Shown in pieces: positions 1 to 22,315 of a DNA stretch of 64,000 bases. The position numbers and the translations under genes are program-made. Origin of the DNA: an uncultured virus (IMG/VR IMGVR_UViG_3300037237_000057). Its lineage: Duplodnaviria; Heunggongvirae; Uroviricota; Caudoviricetes. Numbering within the stretch: position 1 is the first letter of the stretch; every line of letters begins with the position of its first letter. The notes below the pieces were generated by a model, which did not search any database, was not told the DNA's origin, and was given only the letters and a program-made list of their open reading frames with translations. Location of the stretch: the IMG/VR virus record IMGVR_UViG_3300037237_000057. One strand, written 5' to 3'.

Positions 1-442
1 TAGCGTAGTTGTAGACATTCGTGCCCAATTCAAGCGGAGTGGCGAAAGTCCCCGCCGTTATTGTGTGTAAATCTAGCTGTGGGCTAGCAACCCCGCCGAT
101 ATTGACATTGCCTGTGGTAAGAGAAGCAGCTTTCACAGCCCCCGCTTGCGTCACTGTAAACGGATCAGCGGAAATCAAACCTGTAGTGGGATCAATTGTT
201 CCGTTACCAATGCCCACCGTTGCGTTCTGATCAACAGTCAGAACCGGGGTCGATGCGGTTCCTATTTGTATCTGATATGCCGGGGTGAAATCAGCAAGAT
301 CAGAGTCCAAGAATCCAGCGAATCCATACAGTTGATTAGCGTAGTTGTAGACATTCGTGCCCAATTCAAGCGGAGTGGCGAAAGTCCCCGCCGTTATTGT
401 GTGTAAATCTAGCTGTGGGCTAGCAACCCCGCCGATATTGAC
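1..442. repeat. Exact 106-bp direct repeat (1-106 and 337-442), period 336 bp, in frame in the fibre gene
   Basis: Base-by-base identity TAGCGTAGTT...GATATTGAC. The copy at 1-106 is cut by the window edge. Confidence 0.95.
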
Positions 443-1654
443 GATGTTGAAATTCTTAGATGGGGCACCACCGGGCGTAAGATCATAGATATTTTGATTA
501 GGATACGCGCTATTTGCGGAAAGTGGGTCCATCGCAGTTGTGACCGCAACACCGTTTCCCATAACGATATTTTGACACGCTCCGGTGTTTCCAGCACCAA
601 ACAACGCACACGTTGTATTGCTGTTAGCAACAGGAGTCACGGCGTCGAAAAATATCATGTTAGTGAATACATTACCTTGGATGGCCCCGGCACCTGCAAA
701 GTTCAACTCAACTCCAGTCCCTTCTAGTTGAACATTGTTGAAAACGTTACTGTCGATAAGGGTGTATCCTGCCGTCGCTGGCACAATAGACAAATCAACA
801 CCCGCATTTAGAACCATCCTGTTAAAAGTGACTCCGCTTATGTACCCCAAGCCAGATGAATTTCCGGTCGCACTGAGCGATACGCCACCATAAAGACCCA
901 CACAGGTAAAACCATCTACCGCATTCACAAGCTGTATAAACCCGTTGAGCGGGGGTGCCATGGAAAGGCAAGTTCCGCCAAGTGAGCCCTCTGCCGACCC
1001 GTCTATAAGTATATCTTGGATAGACAAGGGGTTTTCTGAATTGATGTTAGTTGTATCGGCAACCTGAATGACAAGCCCGTTATAGAGAGGAGTTGACGGC
1101 AAAACTACATGAAGCCCTTTAAGAATGCCCTCCCCAGTAAGTTTAAACATTACTGATGGGGGAGAACTGGTTGATGGTGCAAAGTAGGTTTCAGGACTCA
1201 AAATAAGAGTCCTGCTAGGATAAGCCCCGATAGCTACGGTTGCCGCAATCGTTTGACTTGTTGCTCCATAACTTCTACCGTCGCATACATTATAAACCGC
1301 TAGACACGCATTAATTTGCACATCTGCCGTTGCTCCCGCAAAAAGGGATGGGTTGCCGACAGAGTTGATGACAGGAGCATTCAGCGGCCCGGTCAGCGTG
1401 CCGCCAGTGAGGGGGAGGAATGAAGCCCCGCTACCTGAAACAGCGTGCCATGTGTAGACGCTGGATACTGGATAACATTGGTAGAGAATAGACGACCCGG
1501 AATCCGTATAGAACGCGCCGTTGTTGATCACAGCCGAGCATGTAGCAGAGGGTGCGCCAACGCCAGTCAACCACCCCACCTGATCAACAGAAATCTTCTG
1601 CCCGTATGCGGCCAATGAGAGCAACAAGAGCGTCAATAAGAAGATGTGCTTCAT
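2..1654 (-). CDS. Signal-peptide-bearing tail fibre/spike-like protein (partial, runs off left edge; not in ORF track)
   Basis: Manual translation from ATG 1654 (ATGA overlap with the upstream stop) gives MKHIFLLTLLLLSLAAYG-QKISV..., open for 551 codons to the window edge. It contains the fibre motif FLPLTGGTLTGPL, a beta-helix-like Asn/Gly-rich segment and an internal repeat with a 112-aa period. Confidence 0.85.
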   Translation of the reverse strand, partial: MKHIFLLTLLLLSLAAYGQKISVDQVGWLTGVGAPSATCSAVINNGAFYTDSGSSILYQCYPVSSVYTWHAVSGSGASFLPLTGGTLTGPLNAPVINSVGNPSLFAGATADVQINACLAVYNVCDGRSYGATSQTIAATVAIGAYPSRTLILSPETYFAPSTSSPPSVMFKLTGEGILKGLHVVLPSTPLYNGLVIQVADTTNINSENPLSIQDILIDGSAEGSLGGTCLSMAPPLNGFIQLVNAVDGFTCVGLYGGVSLSATGNSSGLGYISGVTFNRMVLNAGVDLSIVPATAGYTLIDSNVFNNVQLEGTGVELNFAGAGAIQGNVFTNMIFFDAVTPVANSNTTCALFGAGNTGACQNIVMGNGVAVTTAMDPLSANSAYPNQNIYDLTPGGAPSKNFNIVNIGGVASPQLDLHTITAGTFATPLELGTNVYNYANQLYGFAGFLDSDLADFTPAYQIQIGTASTPVLTVDQNATVGIGNGTIDPTTGLISADPFTVTQAGAVKAASLTTGNVNIGGVASPQLDLHTITAGTFATPLELGTNVYNYA

Positions 1655-4600
1655 TTCGCCTCCACTGTATAATTCGCGCCGTCACATCCAACCTTGGTGT
1701 AAGGTATAGCTGGAGTACCTGTTCCACTAACCGTTGCGCCCCACACCTGCGTCGTAGAATCGGTTACCCATGCCTCTAGACCCCCGTTACTAGCGCAAGG
1801 GAAAGCCGCTGCAAGCGTAGCGTAAAGGCCCGGAGTGATGGTGATTGTCGCGGGGCCAGCGCCGTTGAAAGTGCCAGATGGAGCCGTGATGGGCACTTCA
1901 AATGTAGCGCCTGTACTCAGGAAATAGGCCCACGGTACCCAGACGCTAGAACCATTCAGCGTTTCAAGTTCCGCTCCGGTAGGATATGGTGCCCACTGAA
2001 ATCCATTGCTGGCCGACAAATTTCCAGTGCTCCACCCATTCCACATTCCCTTGAACTTGCAGTTAACGCCCTGACCCGGGTTGTCGGCAATCGAGCAGTC
2101 GTTGTCGAAGTTGAGAATTGTCGGTTGCGCAGTCATACTGCTTGGGCCTTGAACGTTTGACCACACTCCAAGCGGAACGCCGACAGGCAAAGCGCCTGCG
2201 CCCGTATTCGACAAATCCCAAATAGACTGAGAAACGCTTCCTGCAAGGTTCATGCCGATGTTGTGCGCTGCCCCGGTAAAGTACCACGTCACAAAATCGG
2301 CGTGCTGTGTAGCGGGAGTGCGATAAGGATCACTGACCAGCACTGAGCCGTTCTCGCAGCATGCGGCATTGGTGATTGTCCCATTTAACACAGTGCCGTA
2401 GTACATATAGCGGCTGGCGCTCTTGCAAGTAAGAGTGTCCCAATTATGGCTGTTGCCCCCACTTCCACCACGTACAAGTTCGTTCAGGCATGTGCCGGAA
2501 ATGCCGGGGTAACCGGGACCGTTTGCTTGCCCAAGATCAAGCTGCGTTGTAACAGGCGCGCTCGTCTGACGCTGGTTCGCCGACTGTGGGAAGGTCTGCG
2601 CCTCGAAGAAGTCTGTCGCGTGGTAGCTGTATTCAGTTCCCCAGATGTTCGCCGCAAACCAGTCATCGAGTTTACTGCTGTAGGTCGAGAAGAAAGACAT
2701 ATTCGACTCAATCTGCGTGTTGAGGAAGCCGCCATAAATAGAAGACGTGTCCGTGCGTCCAGGCCACTGGCCGCCAATCACCATCGGAGCAAGAGCGATG
2801 CCGCTAAGGTTGTAGAGTTGCGAGCCTAAGTCAGTCGCCCCAAAATAGAGGCCGATACCCGTAGAGCCAGCCGCCGAGAAATCGATGTTGTAAATGGCTG
2901 CGTTTGAAATCGAAAACTGCCCGTACACACAGATAAAGCAACTCTGGAGAGTGAGGCCGTCGATCACCAAATTTGAGATTGATCCCTGCCCGAACAGCAC
3001 CGGCTGGTTATTGTCGAATGTGCTCAAATCCCACGCGCCAGCTACGTCAGAAGCCTGCCCATTTGTTCCTTCAAAACTTACCCCGGTAGCAAGCGGAACC
3101 TGCAACGGCAGGGTGGTTGGATTCAGCGGAGCAACGTTGGTGCATTGCAAATCAAACTTGGAGGTTCCAGAATCCCAGCAAGCAAAGTTTCCGAAGATGA
3201 TGGTTGATGCGCTTGAGCAACCGGACGGCGCTGTCGTCCATGCTCCGCTGGCCACGCCGCCGCCTGAATTGGTGGTGGCTATGCCAACGCCAGAAACGCT
3301 GATACCTGAGATGTTGTTGTATCCCGCAACCGGAGTGCAGCCGCCGCCGATTGAGAAGAATCGCAGCGTGACGGATGAGCTAGGAAGGTACCCACTGCCT
3401 GCGTTGGTGATTGTTGGAGTCGCACCGCCTGTGGTGGTTGTAGCCGTAGCACCGTCACCGCCGTGCGCCGTCACTGTAAGGGTGGGTGCGGATTGGAAGC
3501 CGTAGCCTGTATCAACTATCGTAGGCGTTCCGGTAATTACCCCAGAGCTATTCGATGCCACCGTGACCCAAGCGTAGCCGCAAGCGCCGCTGTCGTATCC
3601 CTGCAATCCGCAGCCGCCGGTGATGGCAGTCTGAAACGTGTTCGACGGCGTGTAACCAAAACCGCCCGCCGTGACGGCGCACGAATTGATTGCACCGGCT
3701 GAAATAGTGCAGGTGAGTGCCCCATCAGAGCCGCCTGCAGGCGTTCCGTAGCTGCCATCGTCGCCTGTGGTTGCGAACATATAGTACGGAACCGAGGCGA
3801 ATAGATAGTTGCCCGATGGAATCTGACATGACCCTTTGCTGCCAGTGGCAAGTACGGCGTTTTCGCAAGCTACCGCGGCGGGCACGTTGTCGGTTCCCCA
3901 CCAGATGTAAAAAGTGGAGAGCGTGTTGGCGAAGTTCTTGCTAAGGGTGACGTGTGAAGAGTCTGTGTAACCTGCGATAGTCGCCACATTGTAGGGAGCC
4001 GTAGCGAAGGGCAAACCGGGTGACCAGGCCACACCGTTATTGGTCGCCACCGCGTTCTTGCCTATATCGTCAGAAGCAAATCCAGCGCCCGGGCAAGTAA
4101 GAATGTTGCTCCCCGCCGTCGAACTGCATGTCTGCGAGTAGAACCGCGCGGGTTTGCGATCGGCAACGGCGCCAAATGCCGCGATGCTCAGCGTTGTGCT
4201 CGGTTGCGTGTTGGTTACGGTGATGCTTGACCCGGCCGCCGCGACACTCGTCCCATAGCCAGCAACCACACTAGGCGTTCCGGTGAGTCCATTGATGCTG
4301 GAAACACCGCCTCCGGTGGAGGAGCAGGTGCCATCAAACTTCAAATATCCGGTTGTGCAGGAGGTCCAAAGCCCCACCACATCACCAAAAGTAGGCGCAC
4401 GCCATGCTGATCCGGTTGATGCTCCAAGCCCCGCAGCCGGGTAAACCATACCACCGCCGCCGCCACCACCATATGCTCCCCAGTCATAAAGAACATCGGC
4501 CGGCTGCGATCCGCTGGCCGGTTGTGGGGCAGTGGCGAATGTAATGGTGTTGCCGACCAGCGTGTAACCAATCCCCTGAATTTGCGGGAAATTCTTCCAG

Positions 4601-5310
4601 ACAATGGCCTGCACCGCATTGCTTGGCAGCGCTGCCCCGCCGTTGGTTAAAGTGAATACTGTGTTTGTTCCATCGATAACGCCAGAGGGAATCCCTTGAA
4701 ATAGCGTAAGTCCTCCGCCTCCGCCGGAGAACGGCTGTGCGACATAAGCCCCGCTGATCCACAAATAAGGAACGATCACTGATGTGCGCTGGTCGAGGAT
4801 TGTGACCGCGGTATTGCCGCTGGCAGCCACAATCATGCCGGTAGTGCCGCCAAGGCGCTGCCAGTCGGGAGTGAGGAGGACCTGATAGGAAAGGACGCCT
4901 GCGTAGTTGATGGCCTCTTGCAGGCCTGCCGTGGCTGAAGTGAGATAGAAAGTATTGTGCTTATTGACCGGAGCGACTGTGATCGAGCAGCCCGCGCCGC
5001 TAATGTTGACCGCGCTTGGCGTCACGTTCTCAGAGTTCGCAGGCGTCCCCGTATCCACAATCCTGATCGGAGTACCCACCCTGAAAACGGGAACCAGGGG
5101 GATTCCGCTCGCCGTAGTGTTGCAAAACGAGGGGGCAGACCATGAGAATGGGCCGGTATTTCCCTGCGGCACGCTCCACTGGCCGAAGTTAGATGCCCAG
5201 AGAATGCCCGCGGTATTCCCCGGACCTGTGGTTGGAGTTCCACCACCCTGAGCGCAGCATGACACTGCCACGCCCAGAGCGAGGGAAATTGTGAAGAGGA
5301 GTTTTCTCAT
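1651..5310 (-). CDS. Tailspike/fibre-like protein with signal peptide and putative beta-helix depolymerase
   Basis: N-terminus MRKLLFTISLALGVAVSCCA-Q with an AGGAGG-like context. Contains a PSGVIDGTNTVFTL module, SIAAFGAVAD/GTDN pectate-lyase-3-like start motifs, ITNAGSGY-type repeats, poly-Gly linkers and a C-terminal VGCDGANYTV fibre-tip-like motif. Confidence 0.75.
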   Translation of the reverse strand: MRKLLFTISLALGVAVSCCAQGGGTPTTGPGNTAGILWASNFGQWSVPQGNTGPFSWSAPSFCNTTASGIPLVPVFRVGTPIRIVDTGTPANSENVTPSAVNISGAGCSITVAPVNKHNTFYLTSATAGLQEAINYAGVLSYQVLLTPDWQRLGGTTGMIVAASGNTAVTILDQRTSVIVPYLWISGAYVAQPFSGGGGGLTLFQGIPSGVIDGTNTVFTLTNGGAALPSNAVQAIVWKNFPQIQGIGYTLVGNTITFATAPQPASGSQPADVLYDWGAYGGGGGGGMVYPAAGLGASTGSAWRAPTFGDVVGLWTSCTTGYLKFDGTCSSTGGGVSSINGLTGTPSVVAGYGTSVAAAGSSITVTNTQPSTTLSIAAFGAVADRKPARFYSQTCSSTAGSNILTCPGAGFASDDIGKNAVATNNGVAWSPGLPFATAPYNVATIAGYTDSSHVTLSKNFANTLSTFYIWWGTDNVPAAVACENAVLATGSKGSCQIPSGNYLFASVPYYMFATTGDDGSYGTPAGGSDGALTCTISAGAINSCAVTAGGFGYTPSNTFQTAITGGCGLQGYDSGACGYAWVTVASNSSGVITGTPTIVDTGYGFQSAPTLTVTAHGGDGATATTTTGGATPTITNAGSGYLPSSSVTLRFFSIGGGCTPVAGYNNISGISVSGVGIATTNSGGGVASGAWTTAPSGCSSASTIIFGNFACWDSGTSKFDLQCTNVAPLNPTTLPLQVPLATGVSFEGTNGQASDVAGAWDLSTFDNNQPVLFGQGSISNLVIDGLTLQSCFICVYGQFSISNAAIYNIDFSAAGSTGIGLYFGATDLGSQLYNLSGIALAPMVIGGQWPGRTDTSSIYGGFLNTQIESNMSFFSTYSSKLDDWFAANIWGTEYSYHATDFFEAQTFPQSANQRQTSAPVTTQLDLGQANGPGYPGISGTCLNELVRGGSGGNSHNWDTLTCKSASRYMYYGTVLNGTITNAACCENGSVLVSDPYRTPATQHADFVTWYFTGAAHNIGMNLAGSVSQSIWDLSNTGAGALPVGVPLGVWSNVQGPSSMTAQPTILNFDNDCSIADNPGQGVNCKFKGMWNGWSTGNLSASNGFQWAPYPTGAELETLNGSSVWVPWAYFLSTGATFEVPITAPSGTFNGAGPATITITPGLYATLAAAFPCASNGGLEAWVTDSTTQVWGATVSGTGTPAIPYTKVGCDGANYTVEAK

Positions 5311-5317
5311 AGGAGGT

Positions 5318-6268
5318 TTACTTGCAGCTATACGTGAAGTAATACTGCGTCGACGCCACTGGTGCTGTTGTCGCCACGGTCACGGTCAGAATCCGCTGGA
5401 ATGTTGTCGTGGAACCGGTCGAGCTCATCGCGGAGGTAAACGTGGTGTAGGCATTTGCCCCACTCGAGGCCACGGTGCAGGTGCCTGCATACTGAGGTCC
5501 GCCAGCAGAGACCGCAGGCCAGGTCTCGGTAAACAGAGTCCCTGTCGTGGTCGCTGTTCCGGTAAGGACACTCGCCGTCCCGGTGATTGCTGTCGATGTA
5601 CCCAGATTTGAAACGGTTGGGACTGTTCCAGCGCCGGCGCCCGCCGCGATCGTCGGCGCCGTATTCTTCAATGTGTTGTTTGTTACGGTGTAGGCAGACC
5701 CAGACCACACATAAAAAGTGGCTGGAGCGGTTGTGATGTCCTCGAGCAGCACAGAGTAATTGCCGACCGCGGCGCCGAGGATGGTAGCCGCATTGGTCCC
5801 TGGGATTTGGTTGGCTATCGTCCACCAGTTCTTGTCAAGGATCAGCAAGGTCGGCCACGCACCCTGCCCAGTAAGAGTGTTGATGCCCTCCTGGAGCCCA
5901 CCAGTTCCCGACTTCAATTGAAACGTGTAGTGGCTATTCGATGGCGCGATGGTCACACCGCAGGATCCATTCGTATTCACGATCGCTGAGGGCGTCTTCA
6001 CTTCCGAGTTTGCCGAGTTCTGATCCGCAATCAGCACCGGAGCATTGGTATTGAACACGAAGAAGTTCAGATTCTGCCCTTGGCTGTTGCAAATGCTTCG
6101 GCCCTGGAAGGTGTACGTGTTTGCGCTTTGCTGGTTGAGTGACCACAGCTGAAAGCTGGTCGCATAATACTGCGAGGCTGTGAATGGGGTTGTGGCGGAC
6201 TGCGCTGATCCTACAGCCGCGCAGGCGGCAAGGGTGAGCGCGACGATGAGGCTGAAGGCTTTGCGCAT
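5318..6268 (-). CDS. Signal-peptide-bearing putative virion fibre/adaptor protein (paralogous N-domain to the 1219-aa protein)
   Basis: Likely start MRKAFSLIVALTLAACAAVGSA-Q at 6268, after AAGGAG. Thr/Ser-rich beta protein with a C-terminal ...YYFTYSCK. Confidence 0.7.
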   Translation of the reverse strand: MRKAFSLIVALTLAACAAVGSAQSATTPFTASQYYATSFQLWSLNQQSANTYTFQGRSICNSQGQNLNFFVFNTNAPVLIADQNSANSEVKTPSAIVNTNGSCGVTIAPSNSHYTFQLKSGTGGLQEGINTLTGQGAWPTLLILDKNWWTIANQIPGTNAATILGAAVGNYSVLLEDITTAPATFYVWSGSAYTVTNNTLKNTAPTIAAGAGAGTVPTVSNLGTSTAITGTASVLTGTATTTGTLFTETWPAVSAGGPQYAGTCTVASSGANAYTTFTSAMSSTGSTTTFQRILTVTVATTAPVASTQYYFTYSCK

Positions 6269-6288
6269 GGTGAAGGCTCCTTGTTGGG

Positions 6289-8013
6289 TTATTGGTGACA
6301 TTGGTACGAGAGAATTACACTCGATGATGGCGTACTCGTCATGCCGATGGTGACAATGTAAGGCAGATACGGGAATGCAAACCCCGCCTCAGATGCCGAT
6401 GCATTGGCGTGTGCGAAGGTGGCTTCAAACTGGGTTGTGCTCAATCCAGATGAGAGAACCACCATGGTCTGGCCATTGAGGAATGTGCTGGTGGGGAAGT
6501 TAAGAATCTGAACCGTGGTCGCAGCCGTCAGACCCGTAAACGCGCCAGTTGCACCTGTGAATGTGACCACGTTCGATACGATCGAGTACCCGGTGATCGC
6601 ATAGTTTAGCGGCGAGACATAGACCGGATAGGCGTCATTTGGGTCTGAACTGTTGGCGCTGCACGCCATTGGATGCGGATAAGTCCCACCAAATGCCAGA
6701 GTGAAACGTGGCGTCGTGGTATTGACCTGCACCAGGCCAGCGCCATCATTGAACCCAGCGAACGTATTCAACACTCCAGCACCGGTAATCGTCGGCACAT
6801 TGGCGTTGGGTCCAACAACCGCCGTATTACTCAAAGTGCAGTCGGTCGAGTTCAGACCTGGATCGTCGACGCACGCAACACCGGAATTGGTGCCCGGGAT
6901 GAGATTGAGCTTGGCTTCCTGCGGTTTCGAAGTCGAGCTAACCTGCACCGTCTGGTAGTAAATGCTTCCCAGCGTCGTCAGGAACGTGCAGAAGTTGTCG
7001 AGATACGTCCCATCCGAGCACAATGCCTGCCCAATCGTTCCAGCGCCACCGTTGAGCAAATATCCAGTCTTGGTGTTTATCACACCATTGGCACCGGCAT
7101 TCTCGTTGTCGATTCCCCAGCCGGGAGTCGCTGTTCCCACTCCCAACTTGCCAACCTGGGTCAAGTTGTAGCCGCCAAGACTCAATGGCCCAGAGATCGA
7201 TTGAACCCCGTGATTGGCTGGTGCCGAAAGAATCGGAACTGGATAGTAAACAACACCGTGGTAGTACGGCAGGCCATTCGAGAGATTGATCGTCGTCCCA
7301 GGTCCAATCAACTGCCATTGCATCGGGTATCCCGGAACTGGATTGCCGGATGAATCGGTTAAAGACACTTGATAGCCCGTGCCGGTCGGCCAGACCGCAT
7401 CATTGGCTGTGACCTGGCACAGAGTTGTGTTGCTTGAGGATGGCGATGCGCCGGAGATCAGGGCCGAGGCTTGGACGTATGACGCTGTGCCTGTTGTTTG
7501 ACCCTGAAGCGTCTCTCCACCGGATGTAGTTCCGATGAAGACGTCCATTCCCACAGCATTCGATGGAATGCCGCTCGATGGTGGATTGACGACCAGAGAG
7601 CCGGTAGTGCTGAGCGTTGTCGCCGTCTCCGGACTCGGAAGCGTGACGTGGCCGGCAGCGTCGTACCACTCGTAGACGGTGTAGTAGACACCGGAACCGA
7701 GTGATCCTGACCCGCTGGCGGTGTTGATCGTCGCTGTGAGGGGATTGGGAATGCCGACAACTGAGCCATCGGTTGACGTCCCGCAGGCTACCTGAGTGGC
7801 GAGATTGACTCCGCAACCGGCAATGTATCCCTGCTGGCTGGGTGCCAGCGTCATGGTGTAGTTCGATGACGGGATGCCATTGGCGCCGCGGAGATTGCCC
7901 GTCAGTGTGACCTGGGAATTGGTCACGCACGACTGGGAATGGGCTGCAATGGGATAGATCGAGAGCAGCAGAACAACTAAAGCCGCTTCGAACGATCTAC
8001 GCAGGAGGCTCAC
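6289..8013 (-). CDS. Signal-peptide-bearing tail fibre-like protein
   Basis: MSLLRRSFEAALVVLLLSIYPIAAHS-Q. Contains GKLGVGTATP and PQEAKLNLIPG fibre-like motifs, plus an Ig/FN3-like module resembling those in the 1023-aa tail protein. Confidence 0.7.
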   Translation of the reverse strand: MSLLRRSFEAALVVLLLSIYPIAAHSQSCVTNSQVTLTGNLRGANGIPSSNYTMTLAPSQQGYIAGCGVNLATQVACGTSTDGSVVGIPNPLTATINTASGSGSLGSGVYYTVYEWYDAAGHVTLPSPETATTLSTTGSLVVNPPSSGIPSNAVGMDVFIGTTSGGETLQGQTTGTASYVQASALISGASPSSSNTTLCQVTANDAVWPTGTGYQVSLTDSSGNPVPGYPMQWQLIGPGTTINLSNGLPYYHGVVYYPVPILSAPANHGVQSISGPLSLGGYNLTQVGKLGVGTATPGWGIDNENAGANGVINTKTGYLLNGGAGTIGQALCSDGTYLDNFCTFLTTLGSIYYQTVQVSSTSKPQEAKLNLIPGTNSGVACVDDPGLNSTDCTLSNTAVVGPNANVPTITGAGVLNTFAGFNDGAGLVQVNTTTPRFTLAFGGTYPHPMACSANSSDPNDAYPVYVSPLNYAITGYSIVSNVVTFTGATGAFTGLTAATTVQILNFPTSTFLNGQTMVVLSSGLSTTQFEATFAHANASASEAGFAFPYLPYIVTIGMTSTPSSSVILSYQCHQ

Positions 8014-8360
8014 TGGAGTTGATTTGCCCCGACCGCGGCGAGTTTGGGTCGATTGGCTTCTTCGACTGCAGCTTGCTCGGCCTCCAAACGCTTTTGGGCC
8101 TCGGCCTGTTCCTGCTGTTGCTGGACCGCGACCTGGTGCTGGTGCTCCTGGATGGCATTCTTGGTCTCATCCTGCCTGAGTTGGAACTCGGTCTGCAGCA
8201 TGTTGAGCACGCTGCCATGGATCTGGATTGAGTATGCCCGCAACCGCTTGGCTATCGCCAGATACTCGGTTTGGAGGTTGTTGATGGCTGTTGCAACCGG
8301 CACATCTGCGATTGCCTTCACCTTCTCTTGCAACGTTTCTGCCTGATTCTTCGAGTTCAT
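8010..8360 (-). CDS. Hypothetical coiled-coil protein
   Basis: Likely start at 8360 (ATGA coupling with the upstream stop). Gln/Glu-rich helical sequence, coupled to the downstream fibre gene. Confidence 0.6.
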   Translation of the reverse strand: MNSKNQAETLQEKVKAIADVPVATAINNLQTEYLAIAKRLRAYSIQIHGSVLNMLQTEFQLRQDETKNAIQEHQHQVAVQQQQEQAEAQKRLEAEQAAVEEANRPKLAAVGANQLQ

Positions 8361-8851
8361 GCTGCTTTGTCCTTTCGATACGTCACTCTTTGCCCGTCCT
8401 GCCCTCGTCCGTGTGGTTTGCATTCGAGATTACACTGCGGCCCCTGGTCGGGGTAAGCCCATAGACGAGCAAGACCTCTTTGCCTCTCACGGTAAGCCGT
8501 GGCTTCGGGTCCAAGGAGAGTGCGGCCACACACAGCACAACGGCGATACTCAACAGCGTACATAGAACCAGAACCCCCAGCACGGTGATCAGCGTCCACA
8601 TAGGCTTTCGCCTTCCTCCGCGATCTCAACCAGAAGCCCTGGGGCGTAAATGTAAGTGTAGAGGCTGAATCCCGGCCGCTGAAGTCTGACTCTGAAGCCT
8701 GCACGATAGAGAGCTCCACCCACCAAACCCGATTCAAAACCGGCAGGCTGCGATACTTCCGCATCCGCTCGTTGTGGATCTTGCGGCTCCTGCGTAACAG
8801 TTTCGACTCTGCAAATGGGTCGGTCCATCGGATTACCTCCCGCCTATTCAT
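8357..8851 (-). CDS. Hypothetical protein with Zn-finger-like CxxC...CxxxC
   Basis: 164-aa ORF in an operon chain; CAVCG...CNLEC. Confidence 0.55.
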   Translation of the reverse strand: MNRREVIRWTDPFAESKLLRRSRKIHNERMRKYRSLPVLNRVWWVELSIVQASESDFSGRDSASTLTFTPQGFWLRSRRKAKAYVDADHRAGGSGSMYAVEYRRCAVCGRTLLGPEATAYRERQRGLARLWAYPDQGPQCNLECKPHGRGQDGQRVTYRKDKAA

Positions 8852-8981
8852 CGTCTCAACCCGCCGTCATTTCTGCCGTGTAACTAGCCTCGCCGACCAT
8901 CCAGCAATCGCTCTCAGGTCATCCTGGAGCCTCATTTCATGCCAATAATCGTGCTTTTGGCATGTGTTGCCACAAGTTGCT

Positions 8982-9344
8982 CTAAACTAACTGCATTACC
9001 TTGACTCGCTCATTTCCGCTCGGCATCCCCTTCCAAACCCTCCCAAACGAGTAGCTCGCCACATTCCTCCCAGTGCCGATATACTTCAACACGCCATCCC
9101 GCACCAGCTGGTCGACCGCCTCGCGCGTCAGATGCGTGTGGTGACACGTTGGGCCGTGACACTCCTCGCCATAGCCCCAGTGCTCCATCAGCCGGCCTGT
9201 GTGGTGGCTCAACACACATATCCGGCGCCTCTCTTTGCTCGCTGGCCTCTGTTGTTTGGGAAGTTGCGGTGCGTACCTGAACACCCGGCCCCGTACATGC
9301 GTCTCCACCCGGCTGCCGGTCTGAACGTGCTCTATTTGAGCCAT
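8982..9344 (-). CDS. Hypothetical protein
   Basis: 120-aa ORF with a GAGG RBS; first substantial gene of the leftward transcript. Confidence 0.55.
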   Translation of the reverse strand: MAQIEHVQTGSRVETHVRGRVFRYAPQLPKQQRPASKERRRICVLSHHTGRLMEHWGYGEECHGPTCHHTHLTREAVDQLVRDGVLKYIGTGRNVASYSFGRVWKGMPSGNERVKVMQLV

Positions 9345-9540
9345 TTGCCTCAGTTTCAGGGATACCTATGACTTTGTGTGGCTTTGGTCTCTGATATTCG
9401 GCTCAGAGCAGCCAGATTGAACGGAGCAAGCCATAATGCTCATAATTGGCTTCAATCTCGGCCAGGTGGGATTGGCTTTCATCTCTGGCATCACGGGGGA
9501 TGGGTGGGGACGGGCTTTGGTTGAGCCCCCCGATCCCCCC

Positions 9541-9557
9541 TACAGTTCTGGACTGTA
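9541..9557. promoter_or_regulatory. Palindromic operator candidate overlapping the -10/+1 of the leftward promoter
   Basis: TACAGT-TCTGG-ACTGTA is a perfect 6-bp inverted repeat. Confidence 0.45.
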
Positions 9558-9580
9558 AAGCTGTTGGGTTGTGGTGTCAA
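9552..9580 (-). promoter_or_regulatory. Sigma70-type promoter for the leftward operon
   Basis: Minus strand reads TTGACA (9580-9575), 17 nt, TACAGT (9557-9552). Confidence 0.75.
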
Positions 9581-9586
9581 ATATAG

Positions 9587-9616
9587 TTGTGCGTTTGTTG
9601 CGATTTGTGCTATTGT
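9587..9616 (+). promoter_or_regulatory. Candidate rightward early promoter
   Basis: TTGTGC, 18 nt, TATTGT with an extended TGn, followed by an AGGAGG RBS and ATG at 9637. Confidence 0.45.
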
Positions 9617-9636
9617 TGCAAGTAGGAGGAATTCTG

Positions 9637-9861
9637 ATGAATACACTTGCAATCGAACTTGCAAAATCTCTTTGGTTACCCATTCTAGTCTTGGCTGGGT
9701 TGATCTACATCAACGTCCGCATCTTCCTGCGGTGCGCGCGCCTGGACAGACAGCTACAGCGCCAACGGCAGGAGCAGGCCTTGTTCGAGGCCATCTATGC
9801 CCCTACGCTGACGGATGAAGAGGTCGCGGAGTTTCACGCGACAAGATGGGATGGCGATTAA
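9637..9861 (+). CDS. Small membrane protein
   Basis: AGGAGG RBS. MNTLAIELAKSLWLPILVLAGLIYIN has one hydrophobic helix. Confidence 0.65.
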   Translation: MNTLAIELAKSLWLPILVLAGLIYINVRIFLRCARLDRQLQRQRQEQALFEAIYAPTLTDEEVAEFHATRWDGD

Positions 9862-10019
9862 TGCCGGCAATCCGAGTTGAGCTCGATCCTGATGTGCACC
9901 GCGAGCTGAAATCGTCGTGTGCTCTACGTGGTGTCACGATCCCGAAGCTGGTGTCTGACATCATCAAACGCTATTTGAGCCAAACCAGAAAGGTAAGGCA
10001 ATCCGATGAAAGTAAGTGA
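9861..10019 (+). CDS. Ribbon-helix-helix (Arc/ParG/CopG-like) DNA-binding protein (not in ORF track)
   Basis: Manual translation MPAIRVELDPDVHRELKSSCALRGVTIPKLVSDIIKRYL shows a beta strand, helix, G-x-T turn and second helix. Confidence 0.75.
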   Translation: MPAIRVELDPDVHRELKSSCALRGVTIPKLVSDIIKRYLSQTRKVRQSDESK

Positions 10020-10257
10020 TTTCTTGGGTGGTGATCGTGTAATGGACGCGCTGTTTATCGCGTTGGCAAGGCCTAGCCTGGACGCACCAGCGCACAAGTG
10101 CGTGATGGATCGCGTAACGGGCATGTGTGAGACCTGCTGCGTCGAGATGACGGAGTTGTGCTCCACGTGCCTGTGCCGTGGGCATCACTCGTTCTGGTGC
10201 CCGAAGCTGCTGGCGGACAGGATTGAGATTGAGAAATTGACTGGGGGTGGGCTGTGA
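10006..10257 (+). CDS. Cys-rich hypothetical protein
   Basis: 83 aa with several CxxC motifs; coupled to its neighbours. Confidence 0.55.
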   Translation: MKVSDFLGGDRVMDALFIALARPSLDAPAHKCVMDRVTGMCETCCVEMTELCSTCLCRGHHSFWCPKLLADRIEIEKLTGGGL

Positions 10258-10466
10258 GCGAGTGGATCAGCGTTGACGAGCGGTTGCCGGAGAATCGCAT
10301 CGCGCAGCTAGTGTGGGTTCCAGAACGCCGCAACATTTATGCAGCCTACTTCGACAAGGAAGTAGGAGACGGATATTGGCGCGTCTTTGGCTCTTACGGA
10401 CGCGCTATTGAGCAAGAGGTCACGCACTGGATGCCGCTACCAGATCCACCGGATGTGCAGCCATGA
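10254..10466 (+). CDS. DUF551-like phage protein
   Basis: MSEWISVDERLPE...VTHWMPLPDPP signature. Confidence 0.85.
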   Translation: MSEWISVDERLPENRIAQLVWVPERRNIYAAYFDKEVGDGYWRVFGSYGRAIEQEVTHWMPLPDPPDVQP

Positions 10467-10579
10467 AGGATCTTGAGACTTGGGTGTGGGGCCTCTTTGT
10501 CGGTGCCGTGGCTGGGTACGTGGGCGCCGTGTACTCGTACTGGCTGCTGTCGTTCTATGTGCCTGGATTCGGCAAGTGA
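10463..10579 (+). CDS. 38-aa membrane peptide (not in ORF track)
   Basis: MKDLETWVWGLFVGAVAGYVGAVYSYWLLSFYVPGFGK, with ATGA/GTGA coupling on both sides. Confidence 0.55.
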   Translation: MKDLETWVWGLFVGAVAGYVGAVYSYWLLSFYVPGFGK

Positions 10580-10758
10580 TCTGCCTGGCATGTAATGGCG
10601 CTGGGTGGCTGTTTAGGCGTGTGGATGTCTCACACATCTACGGCCACCCTCACACGGCCGAGGTCGCGCGTGTGTGCTGGTATTGCCATGGCAAGCGATT
10701 CGTGGAGCTGCTCGATGCGAGTTCAAAGATGGCTCAGGCGAATGATGCTGCCGACTAG
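10576..10758 (+). CDS. Small DnaJ-type Zn-finger-like protein
   Basis: Likely GTG start at 10576; CLACNGAG...CWYCHGK. Confidence 0.55.
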   Translation: MICLACNGAGWLFRRVDVSHIYGHPHTAEVARVCWYCHGKRFVELLDASSKMAQANDAAD

Positions 10759-10916
10759 CGCGGGCCGCCGAGCAAATACCAAAGCAGAAGGATGACTAGG
10801 ATTGCTCCCAATCCAATCCCACCACCACCACTCCATCCCCACCGGCTGTAGCCGTAATATCCGCCACCGCCGCCAAAGATCAGCACCAGAACCACGATAA
10901 GAACGATCAGTCCCAT
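10755..10916 (-). CDS. DUF3309-like small two-helix membrane protein (counter-oriented; not in ORF track)
   Basis: MGLIVLIVVLVLIFGGGGGYYGYSRWGWSGGGGIGLGAILVILLLWYLLGGPR, with a GAGG RBS upstream. Confidence 0.75.
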   Translation of the reverse strand: MGLIVLIVVLVLIFGGGGGYYGYSRWGWSGGGGIGLGAILVILLLWYLLGGPR

Positions 10917-10950
10917 TGGGGTACCTCGCGTTCGATGATAATCAGAGCTC

Positions 10951-10979
10951 TTGCATTTTGTAAAGGACGGTGGTAGCGT
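10951..10979 (+). promoter_or_regulatory. Sigma70-type promoter for the replication genes
   Basis: TTGCAT, 17 nt, TAGCGT with extended TG; followed by a ~120-nt hairpin-rich leader. Confidence 0.5.
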
Positions 10980-11097
10980 GTTGAGTGTCCGTTGCCTCCG
11001 CGATTGGACTCAGGGTGTCTGGCTGATCACCAGACCGCAAGTGGGGGGAGATGTCCTCAAGCGTCTCTCCTCAGCCTCACTTGAGGGAGTGAACGCA

Positions 11098-11922
11098 TTG
11101 AAGTGGCTTAAACACATGACCGCGAGTTGGGATGATGAGGGTCTTGCGCGCCTGATCTCTACAGGCGGAAAAGACGGCCTCGCACGCTATGGATTATGGT
11201 GGCGGGTCCTTGAAATTGTGGCATCCCAGATGGAAGGTCCAAGCCCCTCATGCACCGCTCAGTACCCAGTCACTAGGTGGTCCACTCTGCTGTCACTACG
11301 TGGGTCACTCGTATTCTCAACCCTCTCGACTTTGCTAGTGACAGGGGGGGTGACTGTGGAGCGACTCGATACTGACATACGAGTGACAATTCCTAACTTG
11401 TTGAAATATAGAGATGAATACACACGAAAGTCGGGACACTCTCCGGTCCAAGAAGTAGAAGGAGAACAGAAGGAGAGTAAGAAGGAGATACAGAAGGAGA
11501 AAAAGACGCCCGTGTCGCGGCAAGCCGCTCCTGTGATTGATCTCCCTGAGTGGGTTCCTTCTGGTCCCTGGAATGCGTTTATAGAAATGCGTAAAGATGA
11601 AAAGCATCCCCTGAAATCAGCCAAAGCTATAAGCCTGGCAATCAGTGCTCTTGAGAAGTTGCGCGATGCCGGCAACGACCCGGCCGCCGTCTTGAATCAA
11701 TCAACCATGCGCAGTTGGCGCGGACTCTTTGAAGTGAAAAACGGAGGTAGATCAAATGAAAACAGCAAGCACGAATCCGTTCTCGACACTGTTCAGCGGA
11801 CCCGAGCCAAAGCAGCAGCAGATCGAATGGGCGGTGGCCCTGCTCCGGGAGATGCTGGAAAAGCCACCAAACCCGAGACTGGCGCAGATTTGGGCGCAGA
11901 TTCTGGGGAACTGGACTTCTGA
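11098..11922 (+). CDS. Phage replication initiator (replisome organiser, O-like)
   Basis: TTG start after GAGGGAG (MKWLKHMT...). N-terminal winged-helix-like region, A/G-rich Glu/Lys linker and C-terminal WNAFIEMRK..PL domain typical of phage initiators. Confidence 0.7.
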   Translation: MKWLKHMTASWDDEGLARLISTGGKDGLARYGLWWRVLEIVASQMEGPSPSCTAQYPVTRWSTLLSLRGSLVFSTLSTLLVTGGVTVERLDTDIRVTIPNLLKYRDEYTRKSGHSPVQEVEGEQKESKKEIQKEKKTPVSRQAAPVIDLPEWVPSGPWNAFIEMRKDEKHPLKSAKAISLAISALEKLRDAGNDPAAVLNQSTMRSWRGLFEVKNGGRSNENSKHESVLDTVQRTRAKAAADRMGGGPAPGDAGKATKPETGADLGADSGELDF

Positions 11923-12373
11923 CGACCTGGCCGCGGCATTCAACCACGTCGCACAGACCAGCACGGGCTGGCCTACAATTGGCCATCTCACCGAGTTCAT
12001 CCTCGGCCAGCAATGGGCCAAGGACCTGCCCTGGCTGCTCCAGGCGCTGCGCATGCACGGCTGGGAGTGGAAAGCATACCCAGCCATCTATGGGCCCAAG
12101 TGGCGCAAGCCTGGTGCAAAGATGGATGACTGGGAGGATGCTCCGCTACTTGAGGATGCAATCCCGGCGCCCGAGATCCCGCCAGTGCTGGCTAGAGCCC
12201 TTGAGATATTCGGCGGCGGCCGGCTCGAGGAAGGGCTGAAGGAGTTAAACAAGCACCCATCGGTCCGCGCGATCGATTGGAATGCCGAGGAGGCGTCCAG
12301 GATGAAAGCGCAGATCGAGAAAGGATTCCACGCGGCATGGCTTGCCGCACGTCATGCTGAGATGGCGCACTAG
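11756..12373 (+). CDS. Hypothetical protein, possible helicase loader
   Basis: GGAGG RBS. Lies directly after (and overlaps) the initiator; WPTIGHL motif. Confidence 0.45.
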   Translation: MKTASTNPFSTLFSGPEPKQQQIEWAVALLREMLEKPPNPRLAQIWAQILGNWTSDDLAAAFNHVAQTSTGWPTIGHLTEFILGQQWAKDLPWLLQALRMHGWEWKAYPAIYGPKWRKPGAKMDDWEDAPLLEDAIPAPEIPPVLARALEIFGGGRLEEGLKELNKHPSVRAIDWNAEEASRMKAQIEKGFHAAWLAARHAEMAH

Positions 12374-12419
12374 CCCCGCATCGCCGGGGCAGCGCAGACG
12401 TGAAGCAGGGAGGCTCTGA

Positions 12420-13187
12420 GTGAGCGATTTCTTAGCAGTGTTGTGTGGAGGAGGCCGGAATAGCGCCATGCTCTTTGGCATGTACGAACGCGGAATCGTT
12501 CCTGACATCATCACCTTCGCGGATACTGGAGGGGAGAAGCCAGAGACGTATCAAGCGGTCGAACTTCTCTCGCAATGGTGCGACTCGCATCTTGGGCAAA
12601 CGATCCTGACGGTCGGTAAGTCAAGCATGTACTCCAGCCTTGAGGATCAATCACTCAGGACGCACACGCTTCCGTCAGCGGCCTATGGATGGCGTTCATG
12701 CTCCGACAAGTGGAAGATTCAGCCGCAAGACAAACTAATGACCAATTTCCCTCCCGCGCAGGATATTTGGGCAAGAGGACTGAAGATCACCAAGGCTCTT
12801 GGCTATGACGCTGGCGAGAGACGGCGCGGCGAGAGCATGAAGGAAAGCGACAAGTACCGCTTTTGGTTCCCGCTCAAGGAATGGAACTGGTACTTGAATG
12901 ATTGCATTGAAGCGTTCAAGCGTCACAGCCTCCCTGTTCCGCCAAAGTCTGCTTGCTTCTACTGTCCGTCGAGTACCAAGGTTGAAGTCAAGGCGCTGGC
13001 AAAAGAGCACCCCGAACTGTTCGCCAGAGCCGTAGAGATTGAGCGCAACGCAGAGAACTTGCAAACAGTCAAAGGATTGGGACGCCATTGGAAATGGGAA
13101 GAATTAGTCCAAATTTCAGACATGCAAATGAAGTTGCTGCCTGAAGCACCGCAAATGAACTGCACGTGCTTAGACGGCGATGAGTAA
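12420..13187 (+). CDS. PAPS reductase/PP-loop family protein
   Basis: GGGRNSA PP-loop-like motif, FADTGGE, KSACFYCP and a C-terminal CTC. Confidence 0.8.
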   Translation: MSDFLAVLCGGGRNSAMLFGMYERGIVPDIITFADTGGEKPETYQAVELLSQWCDSHLGQTILTVGKSSMYSSLEDQSLRTHTLPSAAYGWRSCSDKWKIQPQDKLMTNFPPAQDIWARGLKITKALGYDAGERRRGESMKESDKYRFWFPLKEWNWYLNDCIEAFKRHSLPVPPKSACFYCPSSTKVEVKALAKEHPELFARAVEIERNAENLQTVKGLGRHWKWEELVQISDMQMKLLPEAPQMNCTCLDGDE

Positions 13188-13219
13188 CCACCACGCCAGC
13201 AGGCGCAGCACTGAGGAGA

Positions 13220-13729
13220 ATGATGGCTGAGATACAGCGGTACACGCCAGTTCGGACTAGCATGTTCGGAGCGATGGCGGAGAATCTGAGTGGCGAATAC
13301 GTTACTCATGCTGACCACCTAGCCACCCTCGCCGCCAAAGACGCTGAATGGCAGACGGTGCTCGCCCAATCCATCGAGACCAGCAACGCCAACGTAGCGG
13401 CTGCGCAGGATGAGATTGCAACGCTGAAGAATCAGTGCGATCAATTGAGGCTGATGTTTGTTTTAGTTGATGCGGAACTGCCAGAAGACTTTGAGCCTGA
13501 TCTCGGCCAGATTGAGCGAGTAGATGCTTTCGCAAAGTCCTACGCCGCGCTCCGTGAGCAGATTGCCAAGCTGACGGCTCCGGTGAGTGATGAGGAAGTG
13601 TTTCAGCATCGAAGCCACGCAACCAATGGCGGCTACGGTCACAAGGATGGATTGCTCAACAGGACAGCTATCGACGCGCTCTTCAAGGCACGCGCCAAAG
13701 CAGCCGATGCGGTGAAGGAGCAACCATGA
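13220..13729 (+). CDS. Hypothetical phage protein (coiled coil)
   Basis: GAGGAG RBS; GEYVTHADH motif common in phage early genes. Confidence 0.6.
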   Translation: MMAEIQRYTPVRTSMFGAMAENLSGEYVTHADHLATLAAKDAEWQTVLAQSIETSNANVAAAQDEIATLKNQCDQLRLMFVLVDAELPEDFEPDLGQIERVDAFAKSYAALREQIAKLTAPVSDEEVFQHRSHATNGGYGHKDGLLNRTAIDALFKARAKAADAVKEQP

Positions 13730-13842
13730 CAATAGCATTCCAAGTCATTCCCAAGCGCCCATGGTGGCTAACTCCGATTGAGTTAGTCATCATCATCCTG
13801 GGCATCGTCTTAGTCGTAAGCGTGGCGATTTATCTACCATGA
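13726..13842 (+). CDS. 38-aa membrane peptide (not in ORF track)
   Basis: AAGGAG RBS; MTIAFQVIPKRPWWLTPIELVIIILGIVLVVSVAIYLP; ATGA coupling at both ends. Confidence 0.55.
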   Translation: MTIAFQVIPKRPWWLTPIELVIIILGIVLVVSVAIYLP

Positions 13843-14318
13843 CCGACCGTTCGACAATCCGATGCGCTAACTGCAGCCTGAATCAATACCTCACCGCGTC
13901 AGGCATCTGCCGGCGCTGCGGGAAGGCATTCTCCAGGCCTCAGCTTATCGAGTCAACAGCAGCAACAACAGATGGCGAACCCGCGTCAAACCCCAGAATG
14001 TTTTTCACCGAGAAGATCGGTCGCACCCTCTTAGAGTACCGGCACGCACGACACTTGAGCCAACGGCAACTAGCCGAGATCATTGACGTACCCAGAACCT
14101 ACATTTCCAAGTGCGAAAATGGGAACTCGCTGCCAACTATCGTGTCACTCAGGCGGTTCGCCAAAGCACTCGATGTGACTCTGTTTGCATTCCTTGGATG
14201 CGCCGAGGCCGAGCTATTCATGAAAGAGATCGCCCCGTATGTCCACCTACTCAGCAGAGCACAGAGGCGCGTCGTGCTGAATGCTGCAAGCCTGTGCGCC
14301 AAAGAAAAGGAGAATTAG
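13839..14318 (+). CDS. Zinc-ribbon + XRE helix-turn-helix regulator
   Basis: CANC..CRRC ribbon; LSQRQLAEIIDVPRTYISKCENG HTH_3 motif. Confidence 0.85.
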   Translation: MTDRSTIRCANCSLNQYLTASGICRRCGKAFSRPQLIESTAATTDGEPASNPRMFFTEKIGRTLLEYRHARHLSQRQLAEIIDVPRTYISKCENGNSLPTIVSLRRFAKALDVTLFAFLGCAEAELFMKEIAPYVHLLSRAQRRVVLNAASLCAKEKEN

Positions 14319-14322
14319 TCAA

Positions 14323-14580
14323 ATGTCAGACCGATGGGCGTCATCGTGTGTAGGGAAGAGGCACTACAACTCGGAGCGCCGGGCCGACGAGGCCGCCAAA
14401 GCGTCACAGATCGTCTACGGCGTGCCTATCCGCTCGTATCCTTGTGAATTCTGCAAGGGCAAATTCGTGGTCGGGAATACCTTCGCCACAAACGGGAAGA
14501 AGGCGCGCATGGAACGCGAGGGGGCCTCCGAGAGACCGGATGAAATAAAGATTGACGAGAATCCGCAAATAGGCGTATAA
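14323..14580 (+). CDS. Small Zn-binding phage protein
   Basis: AAGGAG RBS; C.GKRHY...YPCEFC. Confidence 0.6.
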   Translation: MSDRWASSCVGKRHYNSERRADEAAKASQIVYGVPIRSYPCEFCKGKFVVGNTFATNGKKARMEREGASERPDEIKIDENPQIGV

Positions 14581-14588
14581 GGGGATTC

Positions 14589-14801
14589 ATGCGGTACTAT
14601 TCCAAGCAAGATCTACTCGATGAACTAAAGCAGATGTGCGCTGCCAGTTCTCAGAGATGCGTCTCGGAAAGCCTTGGGTTCCGGCCAGCGTTCATCAATG
14701 ACGTGCTGCGGGAGCGACGGGGCATTACGGGGAACCTAGCGTCGGCGCTGGGCTACGTGAAGATGCCTGATCGATACGCGAAGAAAGAGGAAACCAATTG
14801 A
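14589..14801 (+). CDS. Cro/HigA-like HTH protein
   Basis: SQRCVSESLGFRPAFINDVLRERR HTH pattern; TTGACG-18-TATAAG promoter immediately upstream. Confidence 0.65.
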   Translation: MRYYSKQDLLDELKQMCAASSQRCVSESLGFRPAFINDVLRERRGITGNLASALGYVKMPDRYAKKEETN

Positions 14802-15817: not shown

Positions 15818-15935
15818 GTTTGATTCCAGTCGCAGAGTCCCTCGGTTGGTCCTGCGCGGATAAGTCCCTTCAAAGCTGGTGCCGAGGACTGGCAGAATAG
15901 GGCAAAAACTCAACCCCGAAAGGCAAGGTGATTCA

Positions 15936-16832: not shown

Positions 16833-16867
16833 CAAGTTCTGGCCTCCACTTCAATGTGGGCCGGAAG

Positions 16868-17031
16868 ATGCGCGGCGACATGCATGGGTTTAGTAGACCC
16901 GTAAGCGCATGGCACCCAAACCCGGAAGGTGATCAGTGCAGCGAGATACCCTCTAACCCATCGGTGAAATGATACGCGTTGGGATCGGAGGTCCTTCCAA
17001 GAGCTAGCCGGTAAAAGCCCGGCCCGCGCAT
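16868..17031 (+). ncRNA. Putative structured ncRNA with a tRNA-like acceptor/T-arm closure
   Basis: TGCGCGG (16869-75) pairs with CCGCGCA (17024-30), directly preceded by GCCGG-TAAAAGC-CCGGC. Internal stems are CATGC/GCATG, GGAAGG/CCTTCC and CCTCT/GGAGG. Confidence 0.45.
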
Positions 17032-22309: not shown

Positions 22310-22315
22310 GGTCCC

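Follow-up and report, generated by a model that had tools for sequence, protein, structure and literature searches.

Nine consecutive leader-bearing, fiber/spike-like genes in a divergent tailed phage: very probably exported proteins that may join the virion at lysis

The 64,000-nucleotide stretch of DNA from the uncultured virus record IMG/VR IMGVR_UViG_3300037237_000057 (this whole stretch is referred to here as the window) is most of the genome of a divergent tailed phage from soil, and its two ends hold parts of a run of nine consecutive genes (~19 kb), all of whose fiber/spike-like products begin with a leader of the Sec type. An original prediction made from this DNA had described four consecutive genes of this kind with Gln at the first mature position (+1) at one end of the window, and a fifth at 58674-59579. 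Both groups were found, the four being read on the minus strand, and the observation is confirmed and enlarged from five genes to a nine-gene run with leaders conserved in hundreds of uncultured relatives and in Acidobacteriaceae prophages. The explanation we favor, to which we give an even chance, is that the nine genes encode receptor-binding and glycan-binding or -degrading fibers and spikes which are exported and then joined to the virion at lysis. The fuller version of this proposal is a two-compartment assembly, in which head and tail would be cytoplasmic and the whole receptor-binding apparatus would be Sec-exported, folded in the periplasm and docked at lysis; we hold it more tentatively, at slightly short of even.

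The extent of the run was determined from a near-identical virus record (G001, 63,617 nt), which matches positions 1-1700 and 62000-64000 of the window at 100% and has both window ends on the same strand, 5.8 kb apart. The 5.8-kb gap (locus L085) encodes the rest of gene A, three further leader-bearing genes, G (~705 residues), H (304 residues) and I (618 residues), and the N-terminus of F with its leader, so that the order of the run is D, C, B, A, G, H, I, F, E, with adjacent genes overlapping by 4-13 nt or sitting 7 nt apart. All members within the window are on the minus strand. D (574 residues, 6289-8013) consists of a 26-residue leader (7936-8013), an anchor region of residues 27-345 (6979-7935) and a variable C-terminus. 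C (316 residues, 5318-6268), whose start lies 11 codons inside the longest open reading frame (ORF) and which is conserved over its full length among relatives, has a 22-residue leader (6203-6268), an N-domain (~5669-6202) and a C-terminal beta-sandwich. The same order of leader (20 residues, 5251-5310) and N-domain (~4711-5250) is seen in B (1219 residues, 1651-5310), followed by a long variable C-terminal part with the motif FGAVAD. A (2-1654, cut by the window start; 811 residues in G001) has an 18-residue leader (1601-1654) and the motif LPLTGGTLTG. F (~1526 residues in full, of which a 1467-residue gene lies at 59576-64000) has its leader beyond the window end, where it was seen in L085. 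In E (301 residues, 58674-59579) a 20-residue leader (59520-59579) is followed by two repeats, a poly-Pro linker and, at the C-terminus, a domain that, as read by eye and with no Pfam call, may be lectin-like. E is the last gene of the run and stands directly before the lysis genes; beyond it the run leads, by way of small membrane-type genes and a spanin-like gene, to the portal operon. We considered whether positions 2-8013 might be the bacterial flank of a prophage and rejected this, since the run reaches F, E and the lysis genes and its order is kept in relatives: the nine genes are phage genes.

Two peculiarities of individual run genes were recorded in passing. A carries a 336-nt (112-residue) tandem repeat, with exact 106-nt copies at 1-106 and 337-442, and there are three copies in the near-identical record (L085, about 2700-3750). 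The C-terminal part of the G001 homolog of B is in two overlapping frames (L085, 1-552 and 407-1534), the result of either a frameshift or a sequencing error, and B of the window is intact.

A tripartite leader, in which a basic n-region and a hydrophobic, uncharged h-region lead up to small residues at -3 and -1, was identified in all nine run proteins by a rule-based scan and reading by eye. The cleavage contexts are AYG-Q in A, CCA-Q in B, GSA-Q in C, AHS-Q in D and AHA-Q in E (the last read by eye), and the +1 residue is Gln in 7/9 proteins, with Thr in H and Val in F. Among 75 non-overlapping window ORFs that were scanned, a leader on a large soluble protein occurred only in A-D (E had been removed by the overlap filter); the remaining flagged ORFs are those of the spanin and of small peptides of membrane type. 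Applied to 400 kb of a host-type genome, a heuristic of this kind flagged 42 of the 345 ORFs (12%), and because this background is only 12% we conclude that nine leader-bearing genes in a row are not a product of chance.

The original prediction had proposed checking homologous phages for conserved signal peptides, and leaders are indeed kept across the relatives of C, of the N-domain and of D. C has 239 relatives, 120 of them listed, and in an alignment of 39 the Ala at -1 and the Gln at +1 are invariant (39/39) while the rest of the leader drifts; Cys60, Cys103 and Cys264 are also invariant and Cys315 is at least 90% conserved. The N-domain, ~170 residues directly after the leader, is common to B, C and an extra gene in relatives and contains the motif H...SGT.GLQE and two invariant Cys. 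Its profile matched 718 clusters at E<=1e-3 among 1.84 billion representatives; in the best 150 of these the domain starts at residue 2-57 of proteins of ~150 to 2196 residues, 143 of which have a hydrophobic leader and 140 an [AGSC]-Gln behind the leader core. Residues 1-345 of D, used as a query, found 320 relatives, and a hydrophobic leader is present in 109 of the 120 listed. The leaderless exceptions look like truncated or mis-started gene calls. Relatives of D occur in 12 IMG/VR loci and relatives of B in three, and the genes there keep their leaders. It is strongly indicated, at the level of these comparisons, that the leader and its -1 and +1 positions are kept by selection.

Hydrophobic N-termini need not signify export: those of the run proteins could be false leaders, could stay uncleaved as tethers or could be removed by a protease of the phage, with the fibers being assembled in the cytoplasm. 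Cleavage as described here is a prediction of our own heuristic, and there is a precedent in phages of Porphyromonas gingivalis, where capsid proteins with apparent leaders are taken, in the searched text of PMC10367356, to be cut by the prohead protease. Against such an explanation, the leaders have the canonical layout of n-, h- and c-regions with positive charge on the N-side, the invariance of -1 and +1 stands out from a drifting leader, and the feature recurs across nine distinct proteins and two phage lineages that are unrelated to each other. Moreover, no conserved internal Met that would give a leaderless isoform was seen in the C alignment (n=39), and folding in a reducing cytoplasm would leave the even Cys counts described below unexplained. 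We therefore regard a non-export role as very improbable. As an aside on the route of export, the n-region of D (7990-8013, minus strand) contains Arg-Arg-Ser-Phe, which is twin-arginine-like; some D homologs have Ser-Arg-Arg-Thr-Phe and many are without an Arg pair. Conservation of a twin-arginine translocation (Tat) motif was thus not found, and twin Arg is confined to D among the nine leaders.

The mature parts of the nine proteins contain 10, 4, 26, 10, 6, 6, 16, 6 and 30 Cys. That all nine counts are even would occur by chance once in 512. Even counts also predominate among relatives: in the C family 119 were even and one odd, among the N-domain representatives 131 were even and 19 odd, and in the D family (114 proteins with a recognizable cut site) 98 were even and 16 odd, as compared to nine even and six odd for the leaderless window proteins that contain Cys. 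Because the leaders and their -1 and +1 positions are conserved across relatives and the mature Cys counts are even, the run proteins are very probably exported and disulfide-folded outside the cytoplasm, as had been proposed originally. Richness in Cys, however, was rejected as a marker of the class in this window. It had been suggested that the fiber-like proteins are rich in Cys and the ejection proteins essentially free of it, and this contrast is partly right, as the 2539-residue (28605-36224, minus strand) and 528-residue (36225-37811, minus strand) proteins, neither of which has a family match, contain no Cys; it does not extend to leaderless proteins in general, as the leaderless 1023-residue tail protein (p1023) with 19 Cys and the portal with 13 are as Cys-rich as the leader-bearing proteins.

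The prevalence of Gln at +1 was initially connected to the Q-rule of Bacteroidota (PMC5837995, PMC10653852), in which context it is of note that 'Acidobacteri' does not occur in the searched text of PMC5837995. As a property of the phage the connection holds, since Gln at +1 is near-universal in the two phage protein families, but it is not host-wide: in the 400-kb Acidobacteriaceae sample Gln was at +1 in 6/42 leaders by strict counting and in ~13/42 if nearby A-Q sites are included (14-31%), as counted with a crude heuristic in a small sample. On these counts we see no Bacteroidota-style Q-rule in the host. Formation of pyroglutamate at the exposed Gln is nevertheless possible, because the host-type genomes encode a leader-like protein of the glutaminyl cyclase family (Glu_cyclase_2): PF05096 scored over its cut-off in 3/3 host-type genomes, with each ORF being leader-like, and also in 3/14 control genomes.

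The fiber/spike-like character of the nine proteins is supported by motifs, domain organization and, more weakly, predicted structure. The motifs originally quoted are all present (LPLTGGTLTG in A, LGVGTATP in D, FGAVAD and IDGTNTVFTL in B). A to E have no Pfam, PHROG or NCBIfam family match; I has a sub-threshold choice-of-anchor Q match, and F has Pfam CHB_HEX_C and InlB-B-repeat domains in addition to possible BNR-like motifs and a beta-helix-like region, which were read by eye with no Pfam call. Relatives of D match it mostly over residues 1 to ~340 and differ at the C-terminus, where homologs end in Gp53-like_C, a tail-fiber tip domain (35.9 bits vs. a cut-off of 24.9), in K1-lyase_C (31.2 vs. 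27) plus Beta_helix, or in Laminin_G_3. Such swapping of modules is typical of receptor-binding proteins. Relatives of B likewise match residues 1-236 or 1-202 at 59-63% and diverge over the remainder. In the AF2 model of C (pLDDT 88) a disordered leader is followed by the N-domain and a C-terminal beta-sandwich; its BFVD matches are exclusively uncharacterized Caudovirales proteins, and its VIA matches are weak (Z<=7.2), with the sandwich resembling carbohydrate-binding or Ig-type domains and residues 37-123 of the N-domain resembling, also weakly, parts of the phage K1 lyase and of the tail tips of JBD30 and Chi. The model of D is good only at residues 33-250. For residues 33-254 the five best VIA matches (Z 7.7-9.0) are all phage virion parts and include whole small chains taken from the tail tip of Ur-lambda, the neck fiber of cyanophage A-1(L) and the neck of XM1, so that the modeled N-terminus of D weakly resembles fiber anchors of phage necks and tail tips. 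PDB sequence searches with B, p1023 and the 396-residue tail protein (p396) returned nothing, and in the ESM Atlas D matched only viral clusters without names. A complex prediction for D residues 28-345 with C residues 24-316, run without controls, gave no answer (score 0.00) and counts neither for nor against binding.

A question of consequence is which proteins of this phage would recognize its host. No leaderless fiber candidate was found in the phage, and in two related records judged to be complete (G006 and G009) the only large proteins outside the core set are leader-bearing. For p1023, conservation covers the whole protein, at 71-80% in four relatives (one of which has it as two pieces) and at 40-44% in a fifth, and the four differ in the C-termini of D and B. 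All seven related virus records that were examined (the window itself, G001 and G005-G009) have D and N-domain proteins. It also speaks for a part in the virion that, in some bacterial-genome loci with a portal homolog, a leader-bearing N-domain gene stands immediately ahead of the portal or between the capsid and connector genes, and that the genes of the run overlap or abut without surplus promoter- or terminator-like sites. We infer attachment to the virion because there is no leaderless fiber candidate and the two families are core genes, because the anchor of D weakly resembles fiber anchors on phage necks and tail tips, and because the run keeps an adjacency of fiber and lysis genes like that of T7, in which the fiber gene adjoins the holin.

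By the favored explanation, the run proteins are made with a Sec-type leader and very probably cross the inner membrane unfolded, with signal peptidase I cutting the leader before the conserved +1 residue and oxidative folding in the periplasm pairing all Cys; these steps are well supported, and cyclization of the N-terminal Gln to pyroglutamate is possible. The leaderless head-tail particle would be met only once holin lesions and lysis merge the compartments. Docking would be via the constant N-terminal modules, that is, the D-type anchor and the ~170-residue N-domain of B and C, and surplus protein would be released as free enzyme. In design this is close to known podophage fibers and tailspikes such as T7 gp17 and P22 gp9, which are leaderless and have an N-terminal particle-binding domain. 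A constant anchor with exchangeable C-terminal binding or depolymerase modules is common to the run and to leaderless proteins of this type (phage K1 lyase, 7w1c; AP22 gp53-type tips, PF21882); the difference is that the latter fold in the cytoplasm without a leader, whereas the run proteins all have a leader and paired Cys.

The principal competitor to this explanation, which we consider unlikely though far from negligible, is that the proteins are exported but never on the particle, and that they serve the infected cell as enzymes and adhesins, either free or anchored in its envelope. The surface display by the infected host that was originally offered as an alternative is a form of this reading and remains a live rival. 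Roles can readily be imagined for such proteins: trimming of capsule, exopolysaccharide or lipopolysaccharide so that progeny escape without re-adsorbing to debris, destruction or masking of receptors (superinfection exclusion), or stripping of neighboring cells after lysis; host recognition would then be left to the conserved tail proteins p1023 and p396. The leaders and paired Cys point to export and to nothing beyond it, and CHB_HEX_C, the InlB B-repeat, the sub-threshold choice-of-anchor Q match and the Laminin_G_3 and beta-helix regions of homologs are typical of secreted bacterial proteins. The run also adjoins lysis genes and in prophages is interleaved with a putative endolysin-type gene, read by eye. 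The cost of this explanation is that it would leave the phage without any variable receptor-binding protein, since p1023 is conserved end to end, and would have it spend ~19 kb of a roughly 70-kb genome on accessories that are nonetheless represented, in both families, in every related genome examined. It would also have to accommodate D homologs that end in true tail-fiber-tip and tailspike-lyase domains, and the faint likeness of the D N-terminus to neck and tail-tip fiber anchors.

Three known systems offer precedents for export away from the particle. The mosaic adhesive trimeric (MAT) fibers of Bdellovibrio bacteriovorus were found in predator vesicle preparations and are not presented as virion parts in the searched text of PMC10769870. 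Like the run proteins they have, according to the same text, a signal peptide, a conserved beta-rich N-domain (~130 residues) and variable phage-tail-fiber-like parts, and form a multigene family; they differ in being genes of a predatory bacterium and in that 13/21 have an S74 chaperone-protease domain, for which the window proteins are Pfam-negative. The likeness of MAT fibers to the N-domain proteins is one of architecture only. WceF of Pantoea stewartii, a glycan hydrolase, forms trimers with the tailspike fold and is made with an export signal that can be cleaved off; as portrayed in the searched text of PMC7949094 it is encoded by a bacterial chromosomal gene, has a Tat signal (being exported folded) and acts on the bacterium's own exopolysaccharide, all of which set it apart from the run. 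Lastly, P. gingivalis phages carry leader-bearing 'Q-rule' genes whose predicted cut exposes Gln, read by the authors, in the part of PMC10367356 that was searched, as an adaptation to the host secretion system and as envelope modifiers. These, however, number five, have no assigned function and belong to siphovirus-type prophages of Bacteroidota; they are not a fiber set.

The closest parallel to the run in cultured phages is in Tunturi 2, a podovirus of ~63 kb that infects Tunturiibacter psychrotolerans (PMC11924767; record PP885685). Its gp12, gp13 ('tail fiber protein'), gp14 ('pectin lyase') and gp17 ('virion structural protein') are all leader-bearing, with Gln at +1 in 3/4, and have, by our reading of their N-termini, 20, 10, 20 and 34 mature Cys; Tunturi 1 carries the same leader feature. 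As in the window phage, the large fiber/spike-like genes of Tunturi 2 adjoin a tail gene and precede the endolysin. The two phages are otherwise distinct: the portal and the C family are without detectable similarity, the N-domain is absent from Tunturi 2, and no match was obtained when the window portal and C were searched with tblastn in cultured phages, although small modules are common to Tunturi 2 and F and G of the window. As judged from the sequences, the leader trait is shared by at least two podovirus lineages of Acidobacteriaceae that are unrelated to each other. The term 'signal peptide' has no occurrence, and virion proteomics is not reported, in the searched text of PMC11924767.

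Several considerations weigh against the proposal that exported fibers join the virion. Tailed phages assemble in the cytoplasm, and we know of no precedent for exported tailed-phage fibers; our literature search likewise found no paper describing leader-bearing phage fibers. Our leader calls were made with a heuristic and by eye. Attachment to the virion is a step that we infer, with a plausibility of about one in two. Of the nine proteins six, namely A, G, H, I, F and E, have neither constant module, a Foldseek search of the C and D models against the PDB gave no match at E<=0.001, and at the Z of 7-9 reached by the fold matches chance arrangements are common. The annotated fibers of Tunturi 3 and 4, phages of the same host genus, lack leaders and contain few Cys, so that the trait belongs to particular lineages and is not imposed by the host. 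Finally, both the MAT fibers and WceF exemplify fiber- or spike-type proteins that are exported to act elsewhere than on a particle, and by analogy with the former the constant N-domain could anchor to the envelope instead of the tail.

A further possibility is that the run consists of moron-type lysogenic-conversion genes in the manner of lambda Lom, that is, of surface adhesins or enzymes expressed by the prophage for the benefit of the host, independently of the lytic cycle, and irrelevant to the particle. The distribution of the families bears on this. The N-domain was found in 63 bacterial-genome loci, 60 of them in Acidobacteriaceae, Terracidiphilus or Terriglobales and three in Verrucomicrobia or Opitutaceae (the latter on contigs of <=24 kb, whereas many of the 63 are on contigs of 0.1-2.5 Mb), and the predicted host is a member of the Acidobacteriaceae. 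A portal homolog is present in 39 of the 63 fetched stretches, mostly then with homologs of p568, the capsid protein and p231, and was not seen in the other 24 stretches; the 39 portal-bearing loci are, by this evidence, prophages of a wider family. That relatives are prophages in long Acidobacteriaceae contigs is in keeping with lysogenic conversion, as is the varying position of N-domain genes within the structural module: some prophages have a leader-bearing one between the p137b and p106/portal genes, and another lies between the capsid and connector genes in L024. Lom itself, in the searched text of PMC12309495, is a leader-bearing gene among tail and fiber genes; it is a single outer-membrane beta-barrel expressed in lysogens, and is neither fiber-like nor core. 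The run, by contrast, is long and co-directional, its genes overlap or abut, and in positions 1-11000 of the window promoter- and terminator-like sites are no more frequent than expected from shuffled sequence. Both families are core and not sporadic. Most of the 120 listed C relatives are on contigs of <70 kb, consistent with free phage genomes, and Tunturi 1 and 2 share the feature with no integrase or recombinase annotated in the searched text of PMC11924767. On balance we consider a moron-type role very improbable.

If the favored explanation is true, an exported receptor-binding set would depart from the textbook account of tailed-phage assembly as a wholly cytoplasmic process. Host range, along with the infectivity of the burst, would then depend on secretion, signal-peptidase and disulfide pathways, making these a new class of host factors and possible targets of defense, and fibers could bear modifications available only in the periplasm that stabilize them in acid soils. 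Annotation pipelines in which a signal peptide counts against assignment to the virion would mislabel such receptor-binding proteins. Even if the proteins are never on the particle, the commitment of about a quarter of the genome to exported glycan-active proteins is unusual. The question is testable, as Tunturi 1 and 2 have the same feature and are in culture with their host.

Together with the 5.8 kb between its ends, the window corresponds to a genome of roughly 70 kb, and no tRNA genes were found in the 64 kb. The small (TerS, 28027-28605) and large (TerL, 26467-28026) terminase subunits, both on the minus strand, were recognized by Pfam and PHROGs, and the closest relatives of TerL among cultured phages have <=28% identity. 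The leaderless virion and packaging genes (26467-53611, minus strand) are in a T7-like order: the portal (862 residues) is followed by genes for products of 390, 568, 442, 231, 314, 237, 122, 1023, 396, 137, 143, 365, 528 and 2539 residues and then by TerS and TerL. The 2539- and 528-residue genes occupy the positions of the internal core proteins of T7. No fiber gene was seen between the 2539-residue gene and TerS, which is the position of the fiber gene in T7. The counterpart of the 2539-residue protein in G009 has 3891 residues, and the 365-residue protein (37816-38913, minus strand) has a sub-threshold Hom_end_hint match (26 bits vs. a cut-off of 32.1). A 127-nt 'direct terminal repeat' in G009 lies inside a 1389-residue leader-bearing gene (L111-L114), a position that suggests an overlap in a circular or permuted assembly instead of physical ends of the genome.

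Directly downstream of E is the presumed lysis cassette (56541-58667, minus strand), with small membrane-type genes, a 258-residue gene and the spanin-like gene (57699-58121), which matches the Rz-like spanin phrog_7686 (E 1.2e-4). Between the lysis genes and the portal operon, inside a nominal 163-residue ORF (54335-54826), is the top terminator-like hairpin of the late region (54624-54646, minus strand; 9-bp stem with a T-rich tail), which might separate two transcription units.

At the other end of the run, three small conserved genes (120, 164 and 137 residues; 8010-9344, minus strand) precede D in relatives, p120 and p164 being present in 10 and p137 in eight of the 12 D loci (L001-L012), and in the window the start of D overlaps the stop of the 137-residue gene by 4 nt. 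Beyond them, 9344-9571 is a divergent intergenic region between the minus-strand run and the plus-strand genes, with a minus-strand promoter-like site from 9580 to 9552 (10/12 matches), and the leader-bearing run may be switched on from here. The plus-strand block (10951-26477) contains replication and recombination genes, among them an HTH regulator, YqaJ exonuclease, SMC-type ATPase, HNH and DnaB, and ends with a Cpn60/GroEL-type chaperonin (24759-26477; Pfam Cpn60_TCP1, E 2.9e-58), upstream of which a candidate GroES-type co-chaperonin (23581-23949, plus strand) was recognized from its N-terminus by eye.

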